In this document: in pieces, positions 19,511 through 49,466 of the stretch
How positions within the stretch are numbered: the first letter of the stretch is position 1
Layout of the letters: every line of letters begins with the position of its first letter
Assembly: GCA_035694865.1 (NCBI GenBank)
Contig: DASSFC010000020.1
Coordinates: 1 to 55,433 of the forward strand
DNA: 55,433 nt
Direction of reading: 5' to 3'
Origin: Candidatus Saccharimonadales bacterium
GTDB taxonomy: Bacteria; Patescibacteriota; Saccharimonadia; Saccharimonadales; UBA10212
Position numbers and translations under genes: made by a program
The notes under the pieces: generated by a model
Seen by the model: only the letters and a program-made list of their open reading frames with translations
Databases searched by the model: none
What the model was told of the DNA's origin: nothing

Positions 19511-20461
19511 ATGAGTTTTTTAGAGAGCTTGCCAAGGCCGTTTTTTGTGTTGGCACCGATGGATGATGTGACAGATACGGTTTTCAGGCAAATCATCATC
19601 GATTGCGCCAAGCCTGACTTAATGCTTACCGAGTTTGTTAATGTCGACGGCCTGCAAAGCCCGGGCAGGGAACATCTGCTGCATAAGCTCAAGCTGTCAA
19701 AAAAAGAAAAGCCAGTAATTGCCCAGCTGTGGGGATTAAAGCCGGATAATTTTTATAAGACCACCAAGGAATTGGCTGGGATGGGCTTTGAGGGGGTAGA
19801 CCTTAATATGGGCTGTCCGGTAAAGACTGTTATTAAAAACGGTGCCTGTGCGGCTTTGATAAATAACAGAGGTCTGGCAGGCGAGATAATTGATGCGACG
19901 GCCGAAGCGGCAGGGGATACCCTGCCCGTCTCTGTTAAGACGCGGGTTGGATTTACAACGGTAGACATGAGCTGGATTGAATTCTTGTTAAATAAAAAAA
20001 TACTTAACATGTTAAGTATTCATGCCCGGACGGCCAAGCAAATGTCTAAAGTCCCGCCCGATTATGATTTACTTGGTCAGGCCGTCCAGCTTCGTAATTC
20101 CCTGGCGCCCTCTACTCTAATTGTCGGTAATGGCGACATTATGAACCGGGCCCACGGCGAAATAATCGCTAAAAAATACGATTTGGACGGGGTAATGATC
20201 GGCCGCGGCGTTTTGCATGATCCATTCGCGTTCGCCGCGGCCAGCCCGTGGCCGGAGTGGGGCAAAGACCAGCGGCTGGGATTATTTAAGAAGCACATCG
20301 AGCTGTTCATTGAGACCTATAAGGAGGCCGAACGAAAATTCGAACCACTGCGTAAATTCTGCAAGCTGTATATTAATGGCTTCGAAGATGCATCCAAAAT
20401 GCGGGAATCATTCATGCATACAAATACTGTCGAAGAAGCACTCAAATCACTGACAGCCTAG
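19511..20461 (+). CDS. dus: tRNA-dihydrouridine synthase
   Basis: LAPMDDVTDTVFR, NMGCP and catalytic-loop motifs of the Dus TIM barrel. Confidence 0.9.
   Translation: MSFLESLPRPFFVLAPMDDVTDTVFRQIIIDCAKPDLMLTEFVNVDGLQSPGREHLLHKLKLSKKEKPVIAQLWGLKPDNFYKTTKELAGMGFEGVDLNMGCPVKTVIKNGACAALINNRGLAGEIIDATAEAAGDTLPVSVKTRVGFTTVDMSWIEFLLNKKILNMLSIHARTAKQMSKVPPDYDLLGQAVQLRNSLAPSTLIVGNGDIMNRAHGEIIAKKYDLDGVMIGRGVLHDPFAFAAASPWPEWGKDQRLGLFKKHIELFIETYKEAERKFEPLRKFCKLYINGFEDASKMRESFMHTNTVEEALKSLTA
19999..20020. repeat. Palindrome motif copy (AATACTTAAC-AT-GTTAAGTATT), perfect 10+2+10, inside dus
   Basis: Read directly; it encodes KILNMLSI. Confidence 0.9.
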
Positions 20462-29017: not shown

Positions 29018-29344
29018 GTATTAGTTCCTTATTAATTCTTACTAGGCACGACCCTTATTGTCTGGATTTGAACTCTTGCACCGAGGGCCGAACATTCCTC
29101 ACCAAGAACAGATAAGCTCCTAATAGCGTAAGTAAACCACGAAACTAGAGTTAAAGCAACCAAAAACAAGTTGACAGTGGCCGCTGGCCTAAGGTTTAAT
29201 CTTAAGCAGGTTAAAAAAACAAAAACAAAAAGGACAAAGTAATGCCGCAGTTAGCATATATTGTATTGCCGACCACGGACGAGCAAATCTTAAAGCTCGA
29301 TCCGGTTTTGGACGAAGCCTGAAAGCGCTCGTTTAAGGAGGTGT

Positions 29345-29377
29345 AACAGATGTGATTATGGTATAATCACATCTGTT
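29345..29377 (+). promoter_or_regulatory. Perfect 15-bp inverted repeat (AACAGATGTGATTAT-ggt-ATAATCACATCTGTT) enclosing the extended -10 TGGTATAAT of tRNA-Met
   Basis: Read directly. TATAAT at 29362..29367 is followed by CACATCTGTT, a variant of the tRNA promoter block. Confidence 0.6.
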
Positions 29378-29385
29378 ATTTTTAG

Positions 29386-30912: not shown

Positions 30913-31797
30913 ATGAAGGCTAGTTTGCCAGAGGGCAAATATGTGCTGGCTGTGTCGGGCGGGGTTGACTCCATGGTATTACTTGACTTGTTAAGTAATT
31001 TACGAGGAGTTGATTTGGTGATGGCGAATTTTAATCATGGCATTAGGGCTGATTCTGATGAAGATGAGAAGCTAATGGCTGTGGCGGCCAGCCGGTACGG
31101 CTGGCCGCTGGAGATTGGACATGGCAAGCTTGGCCCAAAGTCCAGTGAAGAAACATCCCGTCGGGCGCGCTATCAATTTCTTGAAGTCATCCGCATAAAG
31201 CACCAGGCTACAAAAATTATTACAGCCCATCATCAAGATGACTTGATTGAAACAGCGCTGATTAACATCTTAAGGGGGACCAACCGCCGCGGACTATCGG
31301 CCATCGCGGATAACACTAAGGTCTTACGGCCGCTGCTGAATGTCTCAAAGACAGAAATAGTTAAGTACGCCCGTCGGCATGGTTTAGCTTGGCGAGAGGA
31401 CAGCACAAACCAAAGCCCCGACTATCTTAGGAATTATATCCGTCTCGAAATCACCCCCAAGCTAAACGGCCATCAAAAAAAAGCTTTAATTGGCAGCCTG
31501 GCTAAAATCAAACAACTGAATTCGGAAATCGATGAGCAAATCAGGAGTCTGGGATTACTTATTAGGCCCAAAAAAGATATTGATCGCCAACTTTATGCCA
31601 GCCTGCCCGACAAAATCGCTGATGAGCTACTAGTTTATTGGCTGCGGGCTGGGCAGATGGGCGAAATTGACCGGAATGAGGTAAGCCGGCTTAAGCTGGC
31701 GCTAAAAACCGCCAAACCTGATACCCAGCACACTGTTAAAGGCTCTAACCAGCTGGTCGTAAAAGCCAGTACAGCCGGCTTTAAAGCAACCTCTTAG
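30913..31797 (+). CDS. tilS: tRNA(Ile)-lysidine synthase
   Basis: PP-loop VAVSGGVDSMVLLDLL, and the conserved position upstream of ftsH. Confidence 0.88.
   Translation: MKASLPEGKYVLAVSGGVDSMVLLDLLSNLRGVDLVMANFNHGIRADSDEDEKLMAVAASRYGWPLEIGHGKLGPKSSEETSRRARYQFLEVIRIKHQATKIITAHHQDDLIETALINILRGTNRRGLSAIADNTKVLRPLLNVSKTEIVKYARRHGLAWREDSTNQSPDYLRNYIRLEITPKLNGHQKKALIGSLAKIKQLNSEIDEQIRSLGLLIRPKKDIDRQLYASLPDKIADELLVYWLRAGQMGEIDRNEVSRLKLALKTAKPDTQHTVKGSNQLVVKASTAGFKATS
30978..30999. repeat. Palindrome motif copy (ATTACTTGAC-TT-GTTAAGTAAT), 9/10 arms, inside tilS
   Basis: Read directly. It overlaps the PP-loop-adjacent codons VLLDLLSN. Confidence 0.7.
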
Positions 31798-34807: not shown

Positions 34808-35410
34808 ATGGAACCAACTGAAAATCCCAGCCAGCCGCCGGCTGCGCCGCCTCCTCTGAGGGGCATTTCCAAAAATGTTCATGAAGACATGCTGGAGCCG
34901 GGCGAATGCGTGCTGACAGTTGTCCACCGCTCTTTGGTCGGCCTGGCTGGTATCTATATCGTAGCGATAGTTGCTCTGGCTGCAATCTTCGGGCTGTTTA
35001 TTAGCATGTCGCCTGGCACCTTTGATACATCAAGCACTAACATTTCACCAGCTCTCAGCGCTGCTATGGTGCTGGGCGCGATCCTGCTGGTACTAATTTT
35101 GTTTACGGCGACTTACGTTTATCGGCAAAGCCGCCTGCTAGTGACCGACAAAAGCCTTGTCCAGGTCATGCAAAAGACATTATTTATACGTAAAGCCTCA
35201 CGCTTGAGCATGTCTAATGTGGAGGACGTCAACGAAGAGCAGAGAGGTATTTTGGCCAGCATCTTTAACTACGGCACTTTGACGGTCCAGACGGCTGGTA
35301 CTGAAGATAATTTTATCTTCACACTGTGCCCGAACCCGGCTGGCCTGGCCGACAGGATTATAGAGGCCCGCCAGGCCTACGCTAAATCACTCGAAGAAGA
35401 AACAAAATAA
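34808..35410 (+). CDS. Membrane protein with bacterial PH domain (bPH_2/YdbT-like)
   Basis: Two TM helices followed by LVTDKSLVQV...NYGTLTVQTAG, a pattern typical of bPH_2. Confidence 0.55.
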   Translation: MEPTENPSQPPAAPPPLRGISKNVHEDMLEPGECVLTVVHRSLVGLAGIYIVAIVALAAIFGLFISMSPGTFDTSSTNISPALSAAMVLGAILLVLILFTATYVYRQSRLLVTDKSLVQVMQKTLFIRKASRLSMSNVEDVNEEQRGILASIFNYGTLTVQTAGTEDNFIFTLCPNPAGLADRIIEARQAYAKSLEEETK

Positions 35411-35413
35411 GCG

Positions 35414-35453
35414 CCAGGAATAAATACTTAACTAGTTAAGTATTTATTCCTGG
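35414..35453. repeat. Palindrome motif copy, extended: perfect 19+2+19 (CCAGGAATAAATACTTAAC-TA-GTTAAGTATTTATTCCTGG)
   Basis: Read directly. It lies between convergent genes, and its right arm covers the last three codons and the stop of 35444..35749. Confidence 0.95.
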
Positions 35454-35749
35454 AAGGGATTATTGCGGGCTTGCTCAAACAATGTATGCACGCTCGTATT
35501 GTTCTGTTCAAGTGACTGAATCTGGTCAACGGCGCCCTTATCGATTTTCGGTATGGAATTGGTGATGGTGACCTGCTGTGAAGCATCGGGCTCGGCGTTG
35601 GCAAAACGGTTGATTTTAAAGACGACAAAAATGTAACACAGCAGCACAATCAACAGAGCCGCGAAGACCATATGTTTGCCGAACCGCTTTGTGAAATTGT
35701 TTATAAACGGGCCGAGCTTTATTGATTTTAAATCTATATTGGAGTTCAT
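35444..35749 (-). CDS. Single-pass membrane protein, last gene of the pilus operon
   Basis: ATGA overlap with the pilO-like gene; one TM helix and no motif. Confidence 0.5.
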   Translation of the reverse strand: MNSNIDLKSIKLGPFINNFTKRFGKHMVFAALLIVLLCYIFVVFKINRFANAEPDASQQVTITNSIPKIDKGAVDQIQSLEQNNTSVHTLFEQARNNPFQE

Positions 35750-36381
35750 GGCTTCATAAAGATATTAATTTGCAAAGACAGGTCGAGGCCGCCGGCATTA
35801 GCGTCCGGTTCGATACTAACTTGGGCTATCTGGGCGGTCCGTCGGCTCTTTTCAATCTGGTCCAAAAAATTGAGGATCTGAGCGTAAGTTATCTGCTGTG
35901 TGTTCGGGGGTGTTTTACTGCTATTAGCGGTCACGGTCAGCTCCAGGCTATATAGGCCGGCGATACCGCTGACCGGTTTGGCCTGACTAATGGCGCTGAG
36001 TGAAGACGAAGAGACCGCATTGGCAGTGCCGGACGCCCCTCCAAGAGTACTGGTCGGGAATGTAATGCTCTGCAGGGAAAAGCCGGCTTGCGAGGCCATC
36101 TGGTTAAGCTCTAAAACGGTCTGGGCCTGGTTTTTATCATTCGGGATAACTGATTGGGCTACGCTTTTAAAGTAAGAATACTTCTCTACGTCCTTTTTTG
36201 TCTGTTCTAAATTGGCTAACTGGGCGTCGGCGGTCTGGCTTTGGATCTTTAAATCGACTAGTTTGCGGCTCTTTGAAGATAACAAAGATAACCCCTCGAT
36301 CATGACCACGAAGAAGACGATAATTGATATACCAAGTGTGCACAGCAGGATCCAGCGCAACGTCTTGTTAGTCAATTTCAT
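35746..36381 (-). CDS. pilO: Type IV pilus assembly protein PilO-like
   Basis: N-terminal TM, a coiled coil, then an alpha/beta domain. Positioned after pilM-pilN. Confidence 0.6.
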   Translation of the reverse strand: MKLTNKTLRWILLCTLGISIIVFFVVMIEGLSLLSSKSRKLVDLKIQSQTADAQLANLEQTKKDVEKYSYFKSVAQSVIPNDKNQAQTVLELNQMASQAGFSLQSITFPTSTLGGASGTANAVSSSSLSAISQAKPVSGIAGLYSLELTVTANSSKTPPNTQQITYAQILNFLDQIEKSRRTAQIAQVSIEPDANAGGLDLSLQINIFMKP

Positions 36382-36383
36382 CT

Positions 36384-36980
36384 TCAGTTACCTTTGGCCA
36401 CACTTAAGAATTTGGTTTGCGCGGTTTTAGAGAATAAGGCTCGGTAGGTCGAGGTGCACTTATATGTCAGGGTGGCCGTAGTACCGCCGCAGTTAATACC
36501 GATAATATCGACCTTAGAGAATAAACTGTTGCTGGCCTGGCTTAAATTGACGGCGACCTGGGCTGCCGAGGCGTAACTAACGGTGTTAGCAGTGAGATCG
36601 AGAGCACCGCTGACGTTGTTGCTCAGGCTGAGTGATCCGAGAACCGCGCCGGATGGCATGTCGTTTCCGATGGCCTGGATAAGGTCGGAAAAACGAACCT
36701 CAGTACCCAGCACTTTGTTTATAACTTTAATATCGCCGGTGATTTCTTTGGCGTCTTTCTGCACCTGGCTGAGGTTCTGGGCTTTGAGTTCCTGCTTAGT
36801 ATTATCGATACCTTTGCTGTAGTTATGCTGTTGTCTGTCCAGATACACCCAGCCGCCGCCGACAATCAGCATCAGTCCGGCGATTGCACTGAAAAGCCCG
36901 AGCAACCAGTTGCGCAATTTTGTATTTTGGCGGCCGTAGCGGATAGAATCGGCCCGGACTGTCGGCAGTAAATTTATCAT
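36384..36980 (-). CDS. pilN: Type IV pilus assembly protein PilN
   Basis: MINLLP start and a single TM; overlaps pilM by 4 nt. Confidence 0.7.
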   Translation of the reverse strand: MINLLPTVRADSIRYGRQNTKLRNWLLGLFSAIAGLMLIVGGGWVYLDRQQHNYSKGIDNTKQELKAQNLSQVQKDAKEITGDIKVINKVLGTEVRFSDLIQAIGNDMPSGAVLGSLSLSNNVSGALDLTANTVSYASAAQVAVNLSQASNSLFSKVDIIGINCGGTTATLTYKCTSTYRALFSKTAQTKFLSVAKGN

Positions 36981-38044
36981 GTCAGGATCTCCGTCGGGCT
37001 GACTAAGGCTTCGCCGGCGACAATGGAAAACATCGCCAAATCAGCCTCTGATGGAGGTGTTAGTTTACCAAAACTAATTTTTTGCCAGATATCGAGATTG
37101 TAAGTGGGCAGCCTTAGCTCTTTAGACAGGTACTGGTTTAAACCAGGCATGACCGAGCCGCCCCCGACCGTTATGATACGCGTAATTTTACCGTGCGATT
37201 GGGAGTGTTCGGCATAATAGCGGACCGACTTTTCAATTTCCCTAACCAGCCCTTCTAGCTGCGGCTTGATAGCATCGACAATCCGCTGCTGCTTATCGCT
37301 GTAGGCTATGCCAAATTCACTACTCAGGTTAGATGCCTGTTCTATCGTCAGATGAAGATGCTGCGAGATAGATTGGACCATATTATCACCGCCACTGCTG
37401 ACTGTACTGGCTACCAGAAGTGTTTTGTCGAATACGGCGATGTCGGTCGTGACCGACCCGAGGTCGACTATTATTGCCGGCTGCTCATTAGCCTCACCCT
37501 GGAGCTGGACTAAGCGCGACGCGGCATTGATACTCGGTTCAAACGCCACCGGTTCGAGCGACAGCGCCTCAAAGAGCTGGGAATAGCTGTCGATTATATT
37601 TTTAGAAGCCGCTACCAGCAGAATATCCATACCGCTGTCATCTTGATGGGTTATTTCGTAATCCAGATAAAGGCTGTTAGTGGGAATGGGTATGTACTGT
37701 TCGGCTTCCAGGTGGATTGCCTCCATAATCGCAGCGTGGTCCAGCGGCGGCACTTTCATCTGCCGGCTGAAGGTTTTAGACGTTGGTATGCTGCAGGCTA
37801 CCCGCCGGCTGGTAATCGAGCCTTTCAGATTTTTCTCGAACAGGTCATGGACAGCTTTGGCTATGGAATCCGGCTTAACAATCACCCCGTTCTGGACAGC
37901 GGCTGACTCAAAAGATGACAACCCATAACCGGTAACCACAGGAGTTTTGCCATCAGAGCCATCTATCTGCATAGCCTTTAGGCTGGTGTGGCCTATATCC
38001 AACCCAAAGAGGGGTTCGTCACGATAAAATTTTAGATTGCCCAT
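36977..38044 (-). CDS. pilM: Type IV pilus assembly ATPase-fold protein PilM
   Basis: Actin-like fold motifs LFGLDIGHTSLKAMQI and VVDLGSVTTDIAVF. Confidence 0.85.
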   Translation of the reverse strand: MGNLKFYRDEPLFGLDIGHTSLKAMQIDGSDGKTPVVTGYGLSSFESAAVQNGVIVKPDSIAKAVHDLFEKNLKGSITSRRVACSIPTSKTFSRQMKVPPLDHAAIMEAIHLEAEQYIPIPTNSLYLDYEITHQDDSGMDILLVAASKNIIDSYSQLFEALSLEPVAFEPSINAASRLVQLQGEANEQPAIIVDLGSVTTDIAVFDKTLLVASTVSSGGDNMVQSISQHLHLTIEQASNLSSEFGIAYSDKQQRIVDAIKPQLEGLVREIEKSVRYYAEHSQSHGKITRIITVGGGSVMPGLNQYLSKELRLPTYNLDIWQKISFGKLTPPSEADLAMFSIVAGEALVSPTEILT

Positions 38045-40791: not shown

Positions 40792-40826
40792 TAAACAAAA
40801 ACCGGGCACTTTAAAGTTAAGTGCCC
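40792..40826 (-). terminator. Rho-independent terminator after pilA (GGGCACTT-loop-AAGTGCCC followed by GGTTTTTGTTT on the minus strand)
   Basis: An 8-bp stem at 40804..40826, with the complementary A-rich tract at 40792..40801 on the plus strand. Confidence 0.65.
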
Positions 40827-40846
40827 AGTTTGGATAGCTTTAAGCT

Positions 40847-41317: not shown

Positions 41318-41428
41318 TTTATGACCCACCCTTCTTAATTTACTTTTTAATTTATTTTTAGGAACATCATTTGTTCTATGACCTTGATTATAAGCATAAC
41401 CCTTTGGTTGTCAAGCTGTTGCCGGCCC

Positions 41429-44527: not shown

Positions 44528-44560
44528 ATAAGTAGCAATTTAGTGGAGTTTGGAGGAGTA

Positions 44561-45580
44561 ATGGCAGAGAGAAAAGTTAAAGACGCCCCGGTATCCAGCG
44601 GTAAGTCACAAGCCCTGGATTTAGCAGTTGCCCAGATAGAAAAGCAGTTTGGCAAGGGCAGTATCATGCGCCTGGGTGAGGCCCATACTGTTACTGTAGA
44701 AACTATACCCAGTGGCTCGATCGGACTTGATTTAGCCTTAGGGGGCGGTATTCCCAAAGGCCGGATCATAGAGATTTACGGACCGGAAAGTTCTGGTAAG
44801 ACCACTGTTTGCTTGCACGCTGTCGCTGAAGTCCAAAAGTCCGGCGGCACAGCCGCTTATGTCGATGCCGAGCACGCACTTGACCCGGCCTATGCTAAAC
44901 GCTTAGGAGTAGACACTGATAAGTTATTGATAAGCCAGCCGGATAGCGGCGAACAGGCTTTGGAAGTAGTCGAAACATTGGTGCGCAGCAACGCTGTCGA
45001 CATCATCGTCGTCGACAGCGTTGCTGCGCTGGTCCCCCAGGCCGAAATCGAAGGCGATATGGGCGATGCCCATATGGGTCTGCAGGCCCGCCTGATGAGC
45101 CAGGCCCTGCGCAAGCTCACAGGTGTAATTAACCGCTCCAAGACTACAGTTATCTTTGTAAACCAGCTGCGTATGAAAATCGGTGTCATGTTTGGCAACC
45201 CCGAGACCACTACCGGGGGTAACGCTCTCAAGTTTTACGCCAGCGTCCGTATGGACATCCGCCGCATCAGCCAAATCAAACAGGGCGACCAAGTCATCGG
45301 CAACCACGTCCGCGTCAAAGTCGTTAAAAACAAGGTGGCACCGCCATTCCGCGAAGCCGAATTCGATATAATGTACAACCAAGGCATCAGCAAAGAAGGC
45401 GACCTTATAGACCTGTCCGTTAACCACGGGATAGTCGAGAAGTCAGGCGCCTGGTACGTCTATAAAGGTGAAAATATTGCCCAGGGCCGTGAAGCCGCCA
45501 AGCGATACCTGGCCGAGCACCCCAAAGTTTACGACGAGATCGCCAAAACCACTATCGAATCTGCCCAAGCCGCGCAGTAG
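44561..45580 (+). CDS. recA: Recombinase RecA
   Basis: I chose the ATG after the GGAGGAG SD. Motifs: Walker [10 protein letters not shown], with loops L1/L2 conserved. Confidence 0.97.
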
Positions 45581-46049: not shown

Positions 46050-46661
46050 ATGAAAATCACCTCCATAAAACAGCAGGTCAAGAATCCTGAGAGAGCTAGC
46101 ATTTTTGTCGACGGCAACTACGAATTTTCGCTTAGCCTGGATGAGCTGGTTAAGTACAAGCTTAAGAACCATGATGAGATGGATAAGGCGGACATCAAGA
46201 AATTCAAGAAAATCTCTGCCGATGGCAAATTACGGGCCAGGGCGCTGGAATGGCTGATGAACCGGCCGCACTCCGAGCGCGAATTCCGGGACTATCTTTA
46301 CCGTAAAAAAGTTGAACCGGAGCAGATAGATGCGCTGGTAAGCGAATTCACTAAAAATAGCTACCTGGATAATCTCAAATTCGCGGCTTGGTTCACCGAG
46401 CTACAGGCCCGGCGGGGCAAAAGCGACCGGGCTATTAGGTCTGAGCTGTTCAAAAAGGGCATTAGCAGGGAAGTAGCAGACGAGGTCTTAGAAGAGGAAG
46501 CAGGGGACGAAGCTCAGCGGTTAAAGGCGATGATTGAAAAGAAACAAAAGCTCAGCCGCTATAAAGGTGACCCGGAAAAACTGGCAAAATACTTAACAAG
46601 TCAAGGATTTTCCTGGCAACTGGTCAAACAGGAATTATTTGCCAGGCGCGAAGATACTTAA
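46050..46661 (+). CDS. recX: RecA regulator RecX
   Basis: N-terminal IFVDGNYEFSLSLDELVKYKL followed by three helical repeats (ALEWLMNRPHSEREFRDYL...). Confidence 0.8.
   Translation: MKITSIKQQVKNPERASIFVDGNYEFSLSLDELVKYKLKNHDEMDKADIKKFKKISADGKLRARALEWLMNRPHSEREFRDYLYRKKVEPEQIDALVSEFTKNSYLDNLKFAAWFTELQARRGKSDRAIRSELFKKGISREVADEVLEEEAGDEAQRLKAMIEKKQKLSRYKGDPEKLAKYLTSQGFSWQLVKQELFARREDT
46587..46610. repeat. Palindrome motif copy, degenerate (AAATACTTAAC-AA-GTCAAGGATTT), 9/11 arms, inside recX
   Basis: It shares the 13-mer ATACTTAACAAGT with the copies at 46654 and 49209. Confidence 0.65.
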
Positions 46662-46675
46662 CAAGTTAAGTATCT
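46652..46675. repeat. Palindrome motif copy, perfect 11+2+11 (AGATACTTAAC-AA-GTTAAGTATCT)
   Basis: Read directly. It contains the recX TAA stop and overlaps the TAG stop of the convergent gene 46674..47198. Confidence 0.95.
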
Positions 46676-49077: not shown

Positions 49078-49466
49078 AAATATTGGCATTACGAACGGAT
49101 AAACCAGAAGCTGAACTCTATATTTTCGACAATCAGAAGAAGCTAACCGAAATAAAATGGGAGGCCCATCGCCAATTAGCGGAGACCCTCAATTCAAAAA
49201 CGGATGAAATACTTAACAAGTCAAGTATTTCTTATAAAGATCTTGACGGTATAGCGATTTTTAAAGGGCCGGGCAGTTTTACCGGTCTTAGGATTGGTCT
49301 GAGCGTGGCAAATGCCCTGGCCTTCGGCCTGGGCGTGCCAATCGTCGCCTCCAGCGGCGACGATTGGCTTAATGACGCAATCAAGAAACTAGAGGCCCAC
49401 CAAAATGACAAAATCACCACACCAGAATATGGTTCGCCTGTGCACGTAACCAGACCAAAAAAATAA
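49074..49466 (+). CDS. tsaB: TsaB-like protein, N-terminal domain only (130 aa)
   Basis: ILALRTD...GIAIFKGPGSFTGLRIGLSVANALAFGLGVPIV. ATGA overlap with tsaE. Confidence 0.75.
   Translation: MKILALRTDKPEAELYIFDNQKKLTEIKWEAHRQLAETLNSKTDEILNKSSISYKDLDGIAIFKGPGSFTGLRIGLSVANALAFGLGVPIVASSGDDWLNDAIKKLEAHQNDKITTPEYGSPVHVTRPKK
49206..49231. repeat. Palindrome motif copy (GAAATACTTAAC-AA-GTCAAGTATTTC), 11/12 arms, inside tsaB
   Basis: Read directly; it encodes EILNKSSIS. Confidence 0.85.

Follow-up and report, generated by a model that had tools for sequence, protein, structure and literature searches.

A 40-bp palindrome between convergent genes of a Candidatus Saccharimonadales bacterium contains one copy of a recurrent 24-bp box, probably a MarR-family operator

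Results

Genes and features at the junction

The window, by which we mean the whole stretch of DNA that was analysed (55,433 nucleotides), is one contig of a Candidatus Saccharimonadales genome (606 kb in 51 contigs, 50% G+C). The features of the junction studied here, and the copies of the box found elsewhere in the window, are summarized in Table 1. The membrane-protein gene, whose homologues are named YdbS or YdbT in the source records, ends with a stop codon at 35410, and the last gene of the pilus operon, which converges with it on the minus strand, encodes 101 amino acids and occupies positions 35444-35749.

Table 1. Positions of the genes and sequence features at the junction and of the other box copies in the window
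Feature	Position	Strand	Basis or remark
Membrane-protein gene next downstream of ruvB; product YdbS/YdbT-like, bacterial PH-domain match weak	34808..35410	+	Pfam bPH_2 E = 0.004, below cut-off
Operon of pilM, pilN-like gene, pilO and 101-aa gene, ending in the palindrome	35444..38044	-	Pfam PilM_2 E = 4e-33, PilO E = 7e-5; open reading frames
Perfect 40-bp palindrome (20+20)	35414..35453		Sequence; RNA fold -25.3 (+) and -24.4 (-) kcal/mol
Inner 24-bp putative MarR-type box AAATACTTAAC-TA-GTTAAGTATTT	35422..35445		Weight matrix; marR promoter match
Left arm extension CCAGGAAT, which is non-coding and mirrors the coding right flank exactly	35414..35421		No relative has it
Right arm extension ATTCCTGG	35446..35453	-	Covers codons E and Q of the 101-aa gene plus the final base of its stop codon (35444-35446)
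U-rich tail CGCUUAUUUUGUUUCUUCUU past the hairpin on the pilus-operon transcript	35394..35413	-	Terminator scan match, minus strand 35453..35414
Box copy in dus, peptide KILNMLSIH	19998..20021		100% conserved in L009
Box copy (1 mismatch) in tilS	30977..31000		
Degenerate box copy in recX, peptide KYLTSQG	46587..46610		
Perfect box copy containing the recX stop, second convergent junction	46652..46675		
Box copy (1 mismatch) in tsaB, peptide EILNKSSIS	49207..49230		Arose by substitutions, without insertion

An earlier note, made from the letters of this DNA, had described a perfect palindrome between the two convergent genes, and both the sequence and the positions of the open reading frames bear this out. 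Positions 35414-35453 form a perfect inverted repeat, CCAGGAATAAATACTTAAC-TA-GTTAAGTATTTATTCCTGG, with 20-nt arms and no spacer; the arms, CCAGGAATAAATACTTAACT and AGTTAAGTATTTATTCCTGG, are 100% complementary. Because the central TA is self-complementary, 19+2+19 and 20+20 are both valid descriptions of it. Only about 5e-8 perfect 40-bp palindromes are expected by chance in 55 kb. The palindrome lies in the middle of its 55-kb contig and the flanks on both sides are syntenic with those of relatives, so that a fold-back assembly artefact does not account for it. It is thus a real and non-random feature of this genome.

The two sides of the palindrome differ in coding content. The right flank, TTATTCCTGG, is coding-constrained, since in all close relatives it specifies the conserved NPFQE C-terminus and the stop codon of the 101-aa gene. 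The right arm had been credited with the last three codons of this gene plus its stop; it actually holds the stop, two codons (E and Q) and a single base of the third.

The 24-bp box in the genome and in relatives

The claim that the palindrome is built on a recurrent motif was also confirmed: its inner 24 bp is one of 31 sites that match ACTTAAC-NN-GTTAAGT with at most two mismatches genome-wide, and six palindromic copies of the motif lie within the 55-kb window. The recurrent unit is nevertheless not the 9-bp core that had been proposed. A weight matrix built from the 31 copies contains information at half-site positions -4 to +6 only and none beyond ±12 bp, and the unit is therefore a 24-bp box, aAATACTTAAC-WW-GTTAAGTATTt, made of two 11-bp half-sites around a W-W centre. 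Perfect arms are typically 10-12 bp long among the genomic copies, and they extend at least 10 bp past the 16-mer in only three of them, the junction copy, C3:4960 and C22:1972, all of which are non-genic and belong to the source genome. The eight additional complementary pairs that the junction copy has beyond the 24-bp box have a chance probability of 4^-8 per site, or about 5e-4 across the 31 sites.

An 18-mer search gave 27 matches in the source genome against 0 for the reversed control, and, with at most one mismatch, found the 18-mer in 26 of 30 relatives and the reversed control pattern in none. Copy number among these 30 relatives ranges from 19 to 33 per genome in the same genus, from 0 to 50 in the same family and from 0 to 6 in other families of the order. 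With respect to gene arrangement, boxes occupy 3 of 68 convergent, 1 of 64 divergent and 9 of 436 co-directional junctions. Contig C7 was considered as a possible duplicate of the window and rejected, its match being limited to the two box copies.

Some genes carry boxes in distant members of the order. One or two copies are present in recX in every genome examined across the order, at codon positions that differ (46587-46675 in the window, L002:3102, L003:3525 and 3618, L006:3252 and L007:3405; alignment columns ~64-70, 95-100, 181-186, and the stop codon); the presence of a box in recX is conserved and its exact position is not. A perfect box inside ruvA (L002:7068, L015:5942, L016:8626 and L017:8632) is conserved in a family of the order whose genomes have only about two strict copies each, the second one being in recX. 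The 3' end of glyA, the gene for serine hydroxymethyltransferase, bears boxes both in the source genome (C38:14035) and in G027, a relative from another family, where two of them (L004:3762 and 3833) are 71 bp apart. Finally, a copy with one mismatch (C48:5636) lies in the dnaA-dnaN spacer, the usual location of oriC, 89 nt past dnaA and 155 nt ahead of dnaN.

Intragenic copies and selection on the DNA word

Nearly half of the copies (15 of 31) are intragenic and lie in unrelated housekeeping genes: dus, tilS, recX, tsaB, mnmA, tlyA, folD, glyA and apbE, the genes for an exonuclease, RNase HII and a Mur ligase, and the valyl-, arginyl- and leucyl-tRNA synthetase genes. On both strands the box contains TAA in two of its three frames, and every intragenic copy is read in a stop-free frame. 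The encoded peptide is mostly (I/L)LN(K/M)LS(I/N), and the GTCAAG variant of the box gives YLTSQ. The predicted proteome contains seven instances of LNKLS where 0.29 would be expected; in six of them the spelling is exactly CTTAACAAGTTAAGT, for which codon usage predicts a fraction of 0.0008, and the seventh is one base off. The dus box is 100% identical to that of the L009 orthologue, compared with 73% for the 377 flanking alignment columns. The TsaB alignment is free of indels at the box, where substitutions have rewritten a variable loop. This bias in peptides and codons, the conservation in dus and the lack of an indel in TsaB exclude, in practice, an origin by insertion and show that it is the DNA word that is maintained, by selection on the box at the DNA level.

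A miniature mobile or REP-like inserting element would readily explain why a near-identical palindromic repeat is dispersed in the genome and why genera differ in the number of copies, from 0 to 50. Such an origin is scarcely credible, since intragenic copies replace codons without shifting the alignment, as in TsaB, since all of them fall in one of two stop-free frames, and since the copies have neither target duplications nor shared flanks.

The box at the marR promoter

The genome contains a single MarR-family gene, present in one copy (C28:433-837, minus strand). Its product is a protein of 134 amino acids without cysteine, which matches Pfam MarR_2 above the cut-off (E = 1.1e-8) and whose best match in the PDB is MexR (E = 1.5e-4). 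Box C28:880 sits 42 nt upstream of the start of this gene, in the layout TTGACT-17-TAGGCT, the 5' half-site being the TTGACT. In G029, a genome from another family of the order, a box is found 35 nt upstream of a MarR gene whose product is 36% identical. A metagenome scan with an alignment of two proteins yielded 53 MarR loci (27-90% identity) with 46 distinct upstream regions. The pattern CTTGAC-NN-GTTAAG, with at most 2 mismatches in 12, occurs in 42 of these 46 regions and in 1 of 41 control windows; as the scan used recognition-helix peptide patterns (QTEA[NS]VSRQ), the 42/46 figure is valid for regulators that share this helix. The metagenomic boxes end 19-84 nt (mostly 20-50) before the start codon, are uniform in orientation and are followed 16-18 nt later by TAnnnT. 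The centre of the box is W-W in the source genome, and AC, GT or CG in distant loci. marR is monocistronic, and is usually located downstream of rsmA (ksgA) and of genes for small secreted proteins, with no conserved partner gene.

A box that covers the -35 element and spacer of a regulator's own promoter is a standard comparative-genomics signature of an autoregulated repressor. Given that the box lies over a sigma-70-type promoter of single-copy marR in 42 of 46 loci, it is likely to be the operator of that regulator. The motif, whose identity the earlier note had left unstated, is thus most likely the operator of a conserved MarR-family regulator, although some other protein could recognise it. 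On the evidence of its sequence and promoter, the regulator would be a MarR-type autorepressor with an AdcR-like box, belonging to an uncharacterised subfamily. A literature search found no published description of the motif, of a Saccharibacteria MarR protein or of a LexA/SOS box in Patescibacteria. An SOS (LexA) box had been suggested by the copies in recX and ruvA; this reading was dropped because the sites are intragenic or at convergent gene ends and not upstream of recA, and because the link to marR explains the boxes better.

Among all box copies, the marR copy alone is followed by a TAnnnT -10 element at 16-18 nt, and the idea that every copy is a promoter was rejected for this reason. 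Since only the marR copy lies in a recognisable promoter, the role of the other 30 sites, the junction copy included, is not explained by classical repression. Two copies, one 60 nt upstream of an MMPL-type transporter gene (C22:1972) and one 35 nt upstream of an ABC-transporter ATPase gene (C15:13580), could be classical MarR targets; judging from their sequence, both are without a -10 element at the standard spacing.

The orthologous junction in relatives

The junction between the PH-domain gene and the pilus operon was compared in 12 genome loci and in 10 further contigs that carry the closest homologues. The box is present in 7 and absent or decayed in 6 of 13 distinct close relatives. It is found with 0-1 mismatch in the window and, with the identity of the PH protein in brackets, in L075/L076 (82%), L078 (83%), L079 (82%), L081 (80%), L010 (74%) and L011 (70%). 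It is absent or decayed in L074, the closest relative (93%), in L077 (84%), where one half-site is left, in L080, L082 and L083, and in L009 (78%), where it is decayed; it is absent from all of the more distant loci (L012-L020). In the box-bearing relatives the core is perfect or near-perfect, the perfect arms measure 11-12 bp and the central dinucleotide is TA, TT, AT or AA. Arms of 19-20 bp were encountered in none of the 13 distinct close junctions compared and in none of six more distant ones, and no compensatory change was seen in them; the absence of long arms in relatives therefore argues that the long helix is not maintained by compensation.

A comparison of the orthologous junction had been proposed in the earlier note; a palindromic box does recur in 7 of 13 close relatives, and its arms are not maintained by compensatory changes. 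These results run against the earlier argument that the length of the arms means selection on the palindrome itself, since the relatives have arms of 11-12 bp or have lost the box. An invariant sequence, a variable centre and the lack of information beyond ±12 bp are the signature of a protein site and not of an RNA helix. From these comparisons the junction site appears to behave as a protein-binding site, which is either kept intact or lost, and, as the closest relative (93%) has no box at this junction, the site is dispensable there. The long arms, in turn, are private to the source lineage and probably recent.

The end of the PH gene suggests how they may have arisen. In L010, L011, L075 and L078 this gene stops at a TAA located inside the left half-site, and the PH homologues are mostly 205 amino acids long rather than 200. 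In the window the half-site TAA (35429-35431) is still in frame, and the gene already stops at another TAA (35408-35410), seven codons upstream. The stretch released in this way exceeds that of L075 by 9 nt, and it mirrors the coding right flank exactly. The in-frame length difference of 9 nt and the mirror symmetry would find their simplest explanation in an intrastrand template switch that perfected a quasi-palindrome; selection for a stronger hairpin is the alternative.

Hairpin formation and possible termination

When the 81-nt region was folded, the energies listed in Table 1 corresponded to z = -4.8 on the plus strand and z = -5.8 on the minus strand, which confirms that a strong hairpin is predicted on both transcripts, as had been proposed. 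An ordinary copy of the box, that of dus, folds at -8.3 kcal/mol (z = -1.5). The minus-strand hairpin has an 18-bp stem with 5 G-C pairs, followed by 3 nt and by the tail CGCUUAUUUU, and a simple terminator scan flags this strand (35453..35414), where the stem is followed by CGC-UUAUUUUGUUUCUUCU. The statement that neither side has a U-tract is therefore true for the plus strand, where none was found at the palindrome, and wrong for the minus strand. The U-rich tail (35394..35413, minus strand) is complementary to the end of the PH gene, which is rich in Glu and Lys codons. It is possible that the lengthened hairpin and this tail together end the transcripts of the pilus operon. Taken together, the boxes are not a class of terminators, because boxes are found at 3 of 68 convergent junctions and because half of the copies are intragenic; the former count also led us to reject the box as a general terminator of convergent gene pairs.

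The palindrome could in principle be an RNA element in its own right, that is a factor-independent and possibly bidirectional terminator, or a stabilising 3' hairpin, selected as a helix. An 18-bp stem with a 4-nt loop and a folding energy of -24 to -25 kcal/mol on both strands, which no shuffled sequence equalled, fits this possibility, as do the minus-strand tail and the terminator scan. Two other copies outside genes (C3:4960 and C22:1972) have long arms, GC-clamped or AT, and few gene ends of the genome (14 of 587) have a strict GC-rich terminator. The junction also resembles known bidirectional intrinsic terminators in having a long hairpin between convergent stops and a U-rich tail on one strand; it differs from them by its AU-rich stem, its invariant core, the lack of a U-tract on the plus strand and a long stem that is not conserved. 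We consider an RNA element unlikely, because no relative has long arms or a compensatory change, because the core is conserved as a sequence, including in 15 intragenic copies where termination would be harmful, and because ordinary copies fold weakly, as exemplified by dus. In addition, the low frequency of the box at convergent junctions is not that of a terminator, and one of the two other long-arm copies, C22:1972, is in a divergent promoter region.

Discussion

We propose that the 40-bp palindrome is a copy of a MarR box located at a convergent junction, the extra length of its arms being young and private to the lineage, and we hold this reading to be probable. The inner 24-bp box would be a high-affinity site for a dimer of the cysteine-free winged-helix regulator encoded at C28:433-837, which would repress its own promoter via the same box, the 5' half of which would supply the -35 hexamer TTGAC. 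Genomes of the genus carry about 20-33 further copies, and selection at the DNA level has forced half of these into coding regions. The junction copy (35422-35445) would then be an orphan site, devoid of promoter, between two convergent units, recurring in about half of the close relatives, and a dimer bound there may act as a roadblock or as an insulator between these units. The outer 8 bp of each arm would be a recent addition restricted to the source lineage: the PH gene would have gained an earlier in-frame stop, after which its former last codons became a mirror of the coding right flank, presumably by template switching. The hairpin lengthened in this way, with the U-rich tail, might also help to end pilus-operon transcripts.

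Several known systems can be compared with this one. AdcR and ZitR are zinc-responsive MarR-family repressors of streptococci and lactococci. They bind TTAACYRGTTAA as dimers with the MarR fold, over the -35 and -10 boxes of zinc-regulated promoters, and their published core, TTAAC-YR-GTTAA, is matched by the identical core TTAAC-N2-GTTAA of the Saccharimonadales box, which likewise overlaps the -35 element at the marR promoter (PMC6372160). The Saccharimonadales box differs in being longer (24 bp) and in its roughly 30 copies, half of them intragenic, and no zinc-uptake regulon was seen. The proteins differ as well. The regulator scores 16.9 bits against the NCBIfam AdcR_fam_Zn_TF model, the cut-off of which is 175, and no AdcR or ZitR chain is found among its best 40 PDB matches (E <= 10). 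Zinc is reportedly bound in AdcR by E24/H42/H108/H112 and by C30/E41/E107. Inspection of the 134-aa sequence indicated that these ligands are absent from the regulator, which has no cysteine, has histidines at positions 11, 68 and 99 only, and lacks an HxxxH pair in helix 5.

Closer in general organization are E. coli MarR with marO, MexR, OhrR and SlyA, which share with the present system a winged-helix MarR domain and a palindrome over the regulator's own sigma-70 promoter. In contrast with these, the gene described here is monocistronic and has no efflux or stress gene as a conserved neighbour, and many copies of its box lie without promoter at gene ends and inside genes. Judging from the genomic distribution of the box, the departure from known MarR systems appears to lie in the number of copies that are promoter-less, partly intragenic and under selection.

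Tens of near-perfect palindromes per chromosome, coding sequence included, are also a property of chromosome-organising sites such as those of Noc (NBS), SlmA (SBS) and RacA (ram), and of parS, and the junction copy might be one anchor among others in a system of that kind. The 0.6-Mb genome has about 30 such near-perfect palindromes, of which the intragenic half is kept by selection at the DNA level; recX and ruvA carry sites in different families, at codon positions that are not identical, and one copy is in the dnaA-dnaN spacer of this genome, which has no convincing canonical parS. However, other families of the order have 0-6 copies, the only consistent genomic linkage that was found is to the marR promoter, and no protein of the ParB, Noc or SlmA type is tied to the box, the family of the putative binding protein being a different one. 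A role as a chromosome organiser of this type is thus quite unlikely. As for parS itself, the box is unrelated in sequence to the canonical site, TGTTNCACGTGAAACA, of which a single weak match (2 mismatches) was found genome-wide in the 51-contig assembly.

The DNA-uptake sequences DUS of Neisseria and USS of Pasteurellaceae resemble the box in that a DNA motif shapes proteins, and in that inverted pairs of them at gene ends form terminator-like hairpins. If the box were such a signal, enriched by biased uptake during natural transformation via the type IV pilus, one would understand an over-represented, USS-like motif that dictates a peptide, the pilus genes of this lineage and the copies in recombination genes (recX and ruvA). 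We nevertheless find this highly improbable: the density of one box per 20 kb (31 per 606 kb) compares with about one per kb for DUS and USS, which makes the box some 20-fold sparser, and this density, the strict symmetry of an obligate palindrome of the type bound by dimers and the link to the promoter of a cytoplasmic regulator all argue against an uptake signal, to which is added the presence of 0-6 copies in most families of the order.

Returning to the MarR box, we advance tentatively, with more doubt than conviction, that the MarR protein and its roughly 30 boxes constitute a promoter-independent system that operates chromosome-wide in soil Saccharibacteria, and that the 40-bp palindrome is one of these boxes which has additionally been converted into a hairpin terminator. 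Such a system might provide transcription roadblocks or insulators within genes and at their ends, buffer the regulator by titration, or anchor the nucleoid. We know of no description of promoter-independent, chromosome-wide use of a MarR protein. If this system exists, half of its boxes have been fitted into housekeeping genes at the price of changed amino acids, and boxes recur in recX, in ruvA and at the 3' end of glyA across families. Gene regulation in Saccharibacteria and other CPR bacteria is, to our knowledge, almost unexplored, and one conserved regulator with a sharply defined 24-bp box provides a concrete and testable handle on it. The many intragenic copies under selection at the DNA level suggest a role beyond classical repression. 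The perfection of the 40-bp palindrome, on the other hand, is best seen as a young, lineage-private embellishment of an ordinary copy of the box, and should not be taken for a conserved RNA structure.

Other signals and inverted repeats were noted in the window. A canonical GC-rich terminator with a T-tract (40799-40831) and a perfect TTGACA-16-TATAAT promoter (41387-41414), both on the minus strand, show that this genome has ordinary sigma-70 signals. A perfect palindrome of 16+3+16 at 29344-29378, TAACAGATGTGATTAT-GGT-ATAATCACATCTGTTA, is unrelated to the box and contains TATAAT; TTTTT comes next, and immediately after it a tRNA gene with the anticodon CAT. Lastly, an open reading frame of 345 amino acids (44543-45580) contains, at 44983-45029, a perfect inverted repeat of 19 bp (GCGCAGCAACGCTGTCGAC ... 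GTCGACAGCGTTGCTGCGC) whose arms are 9 nt apart.
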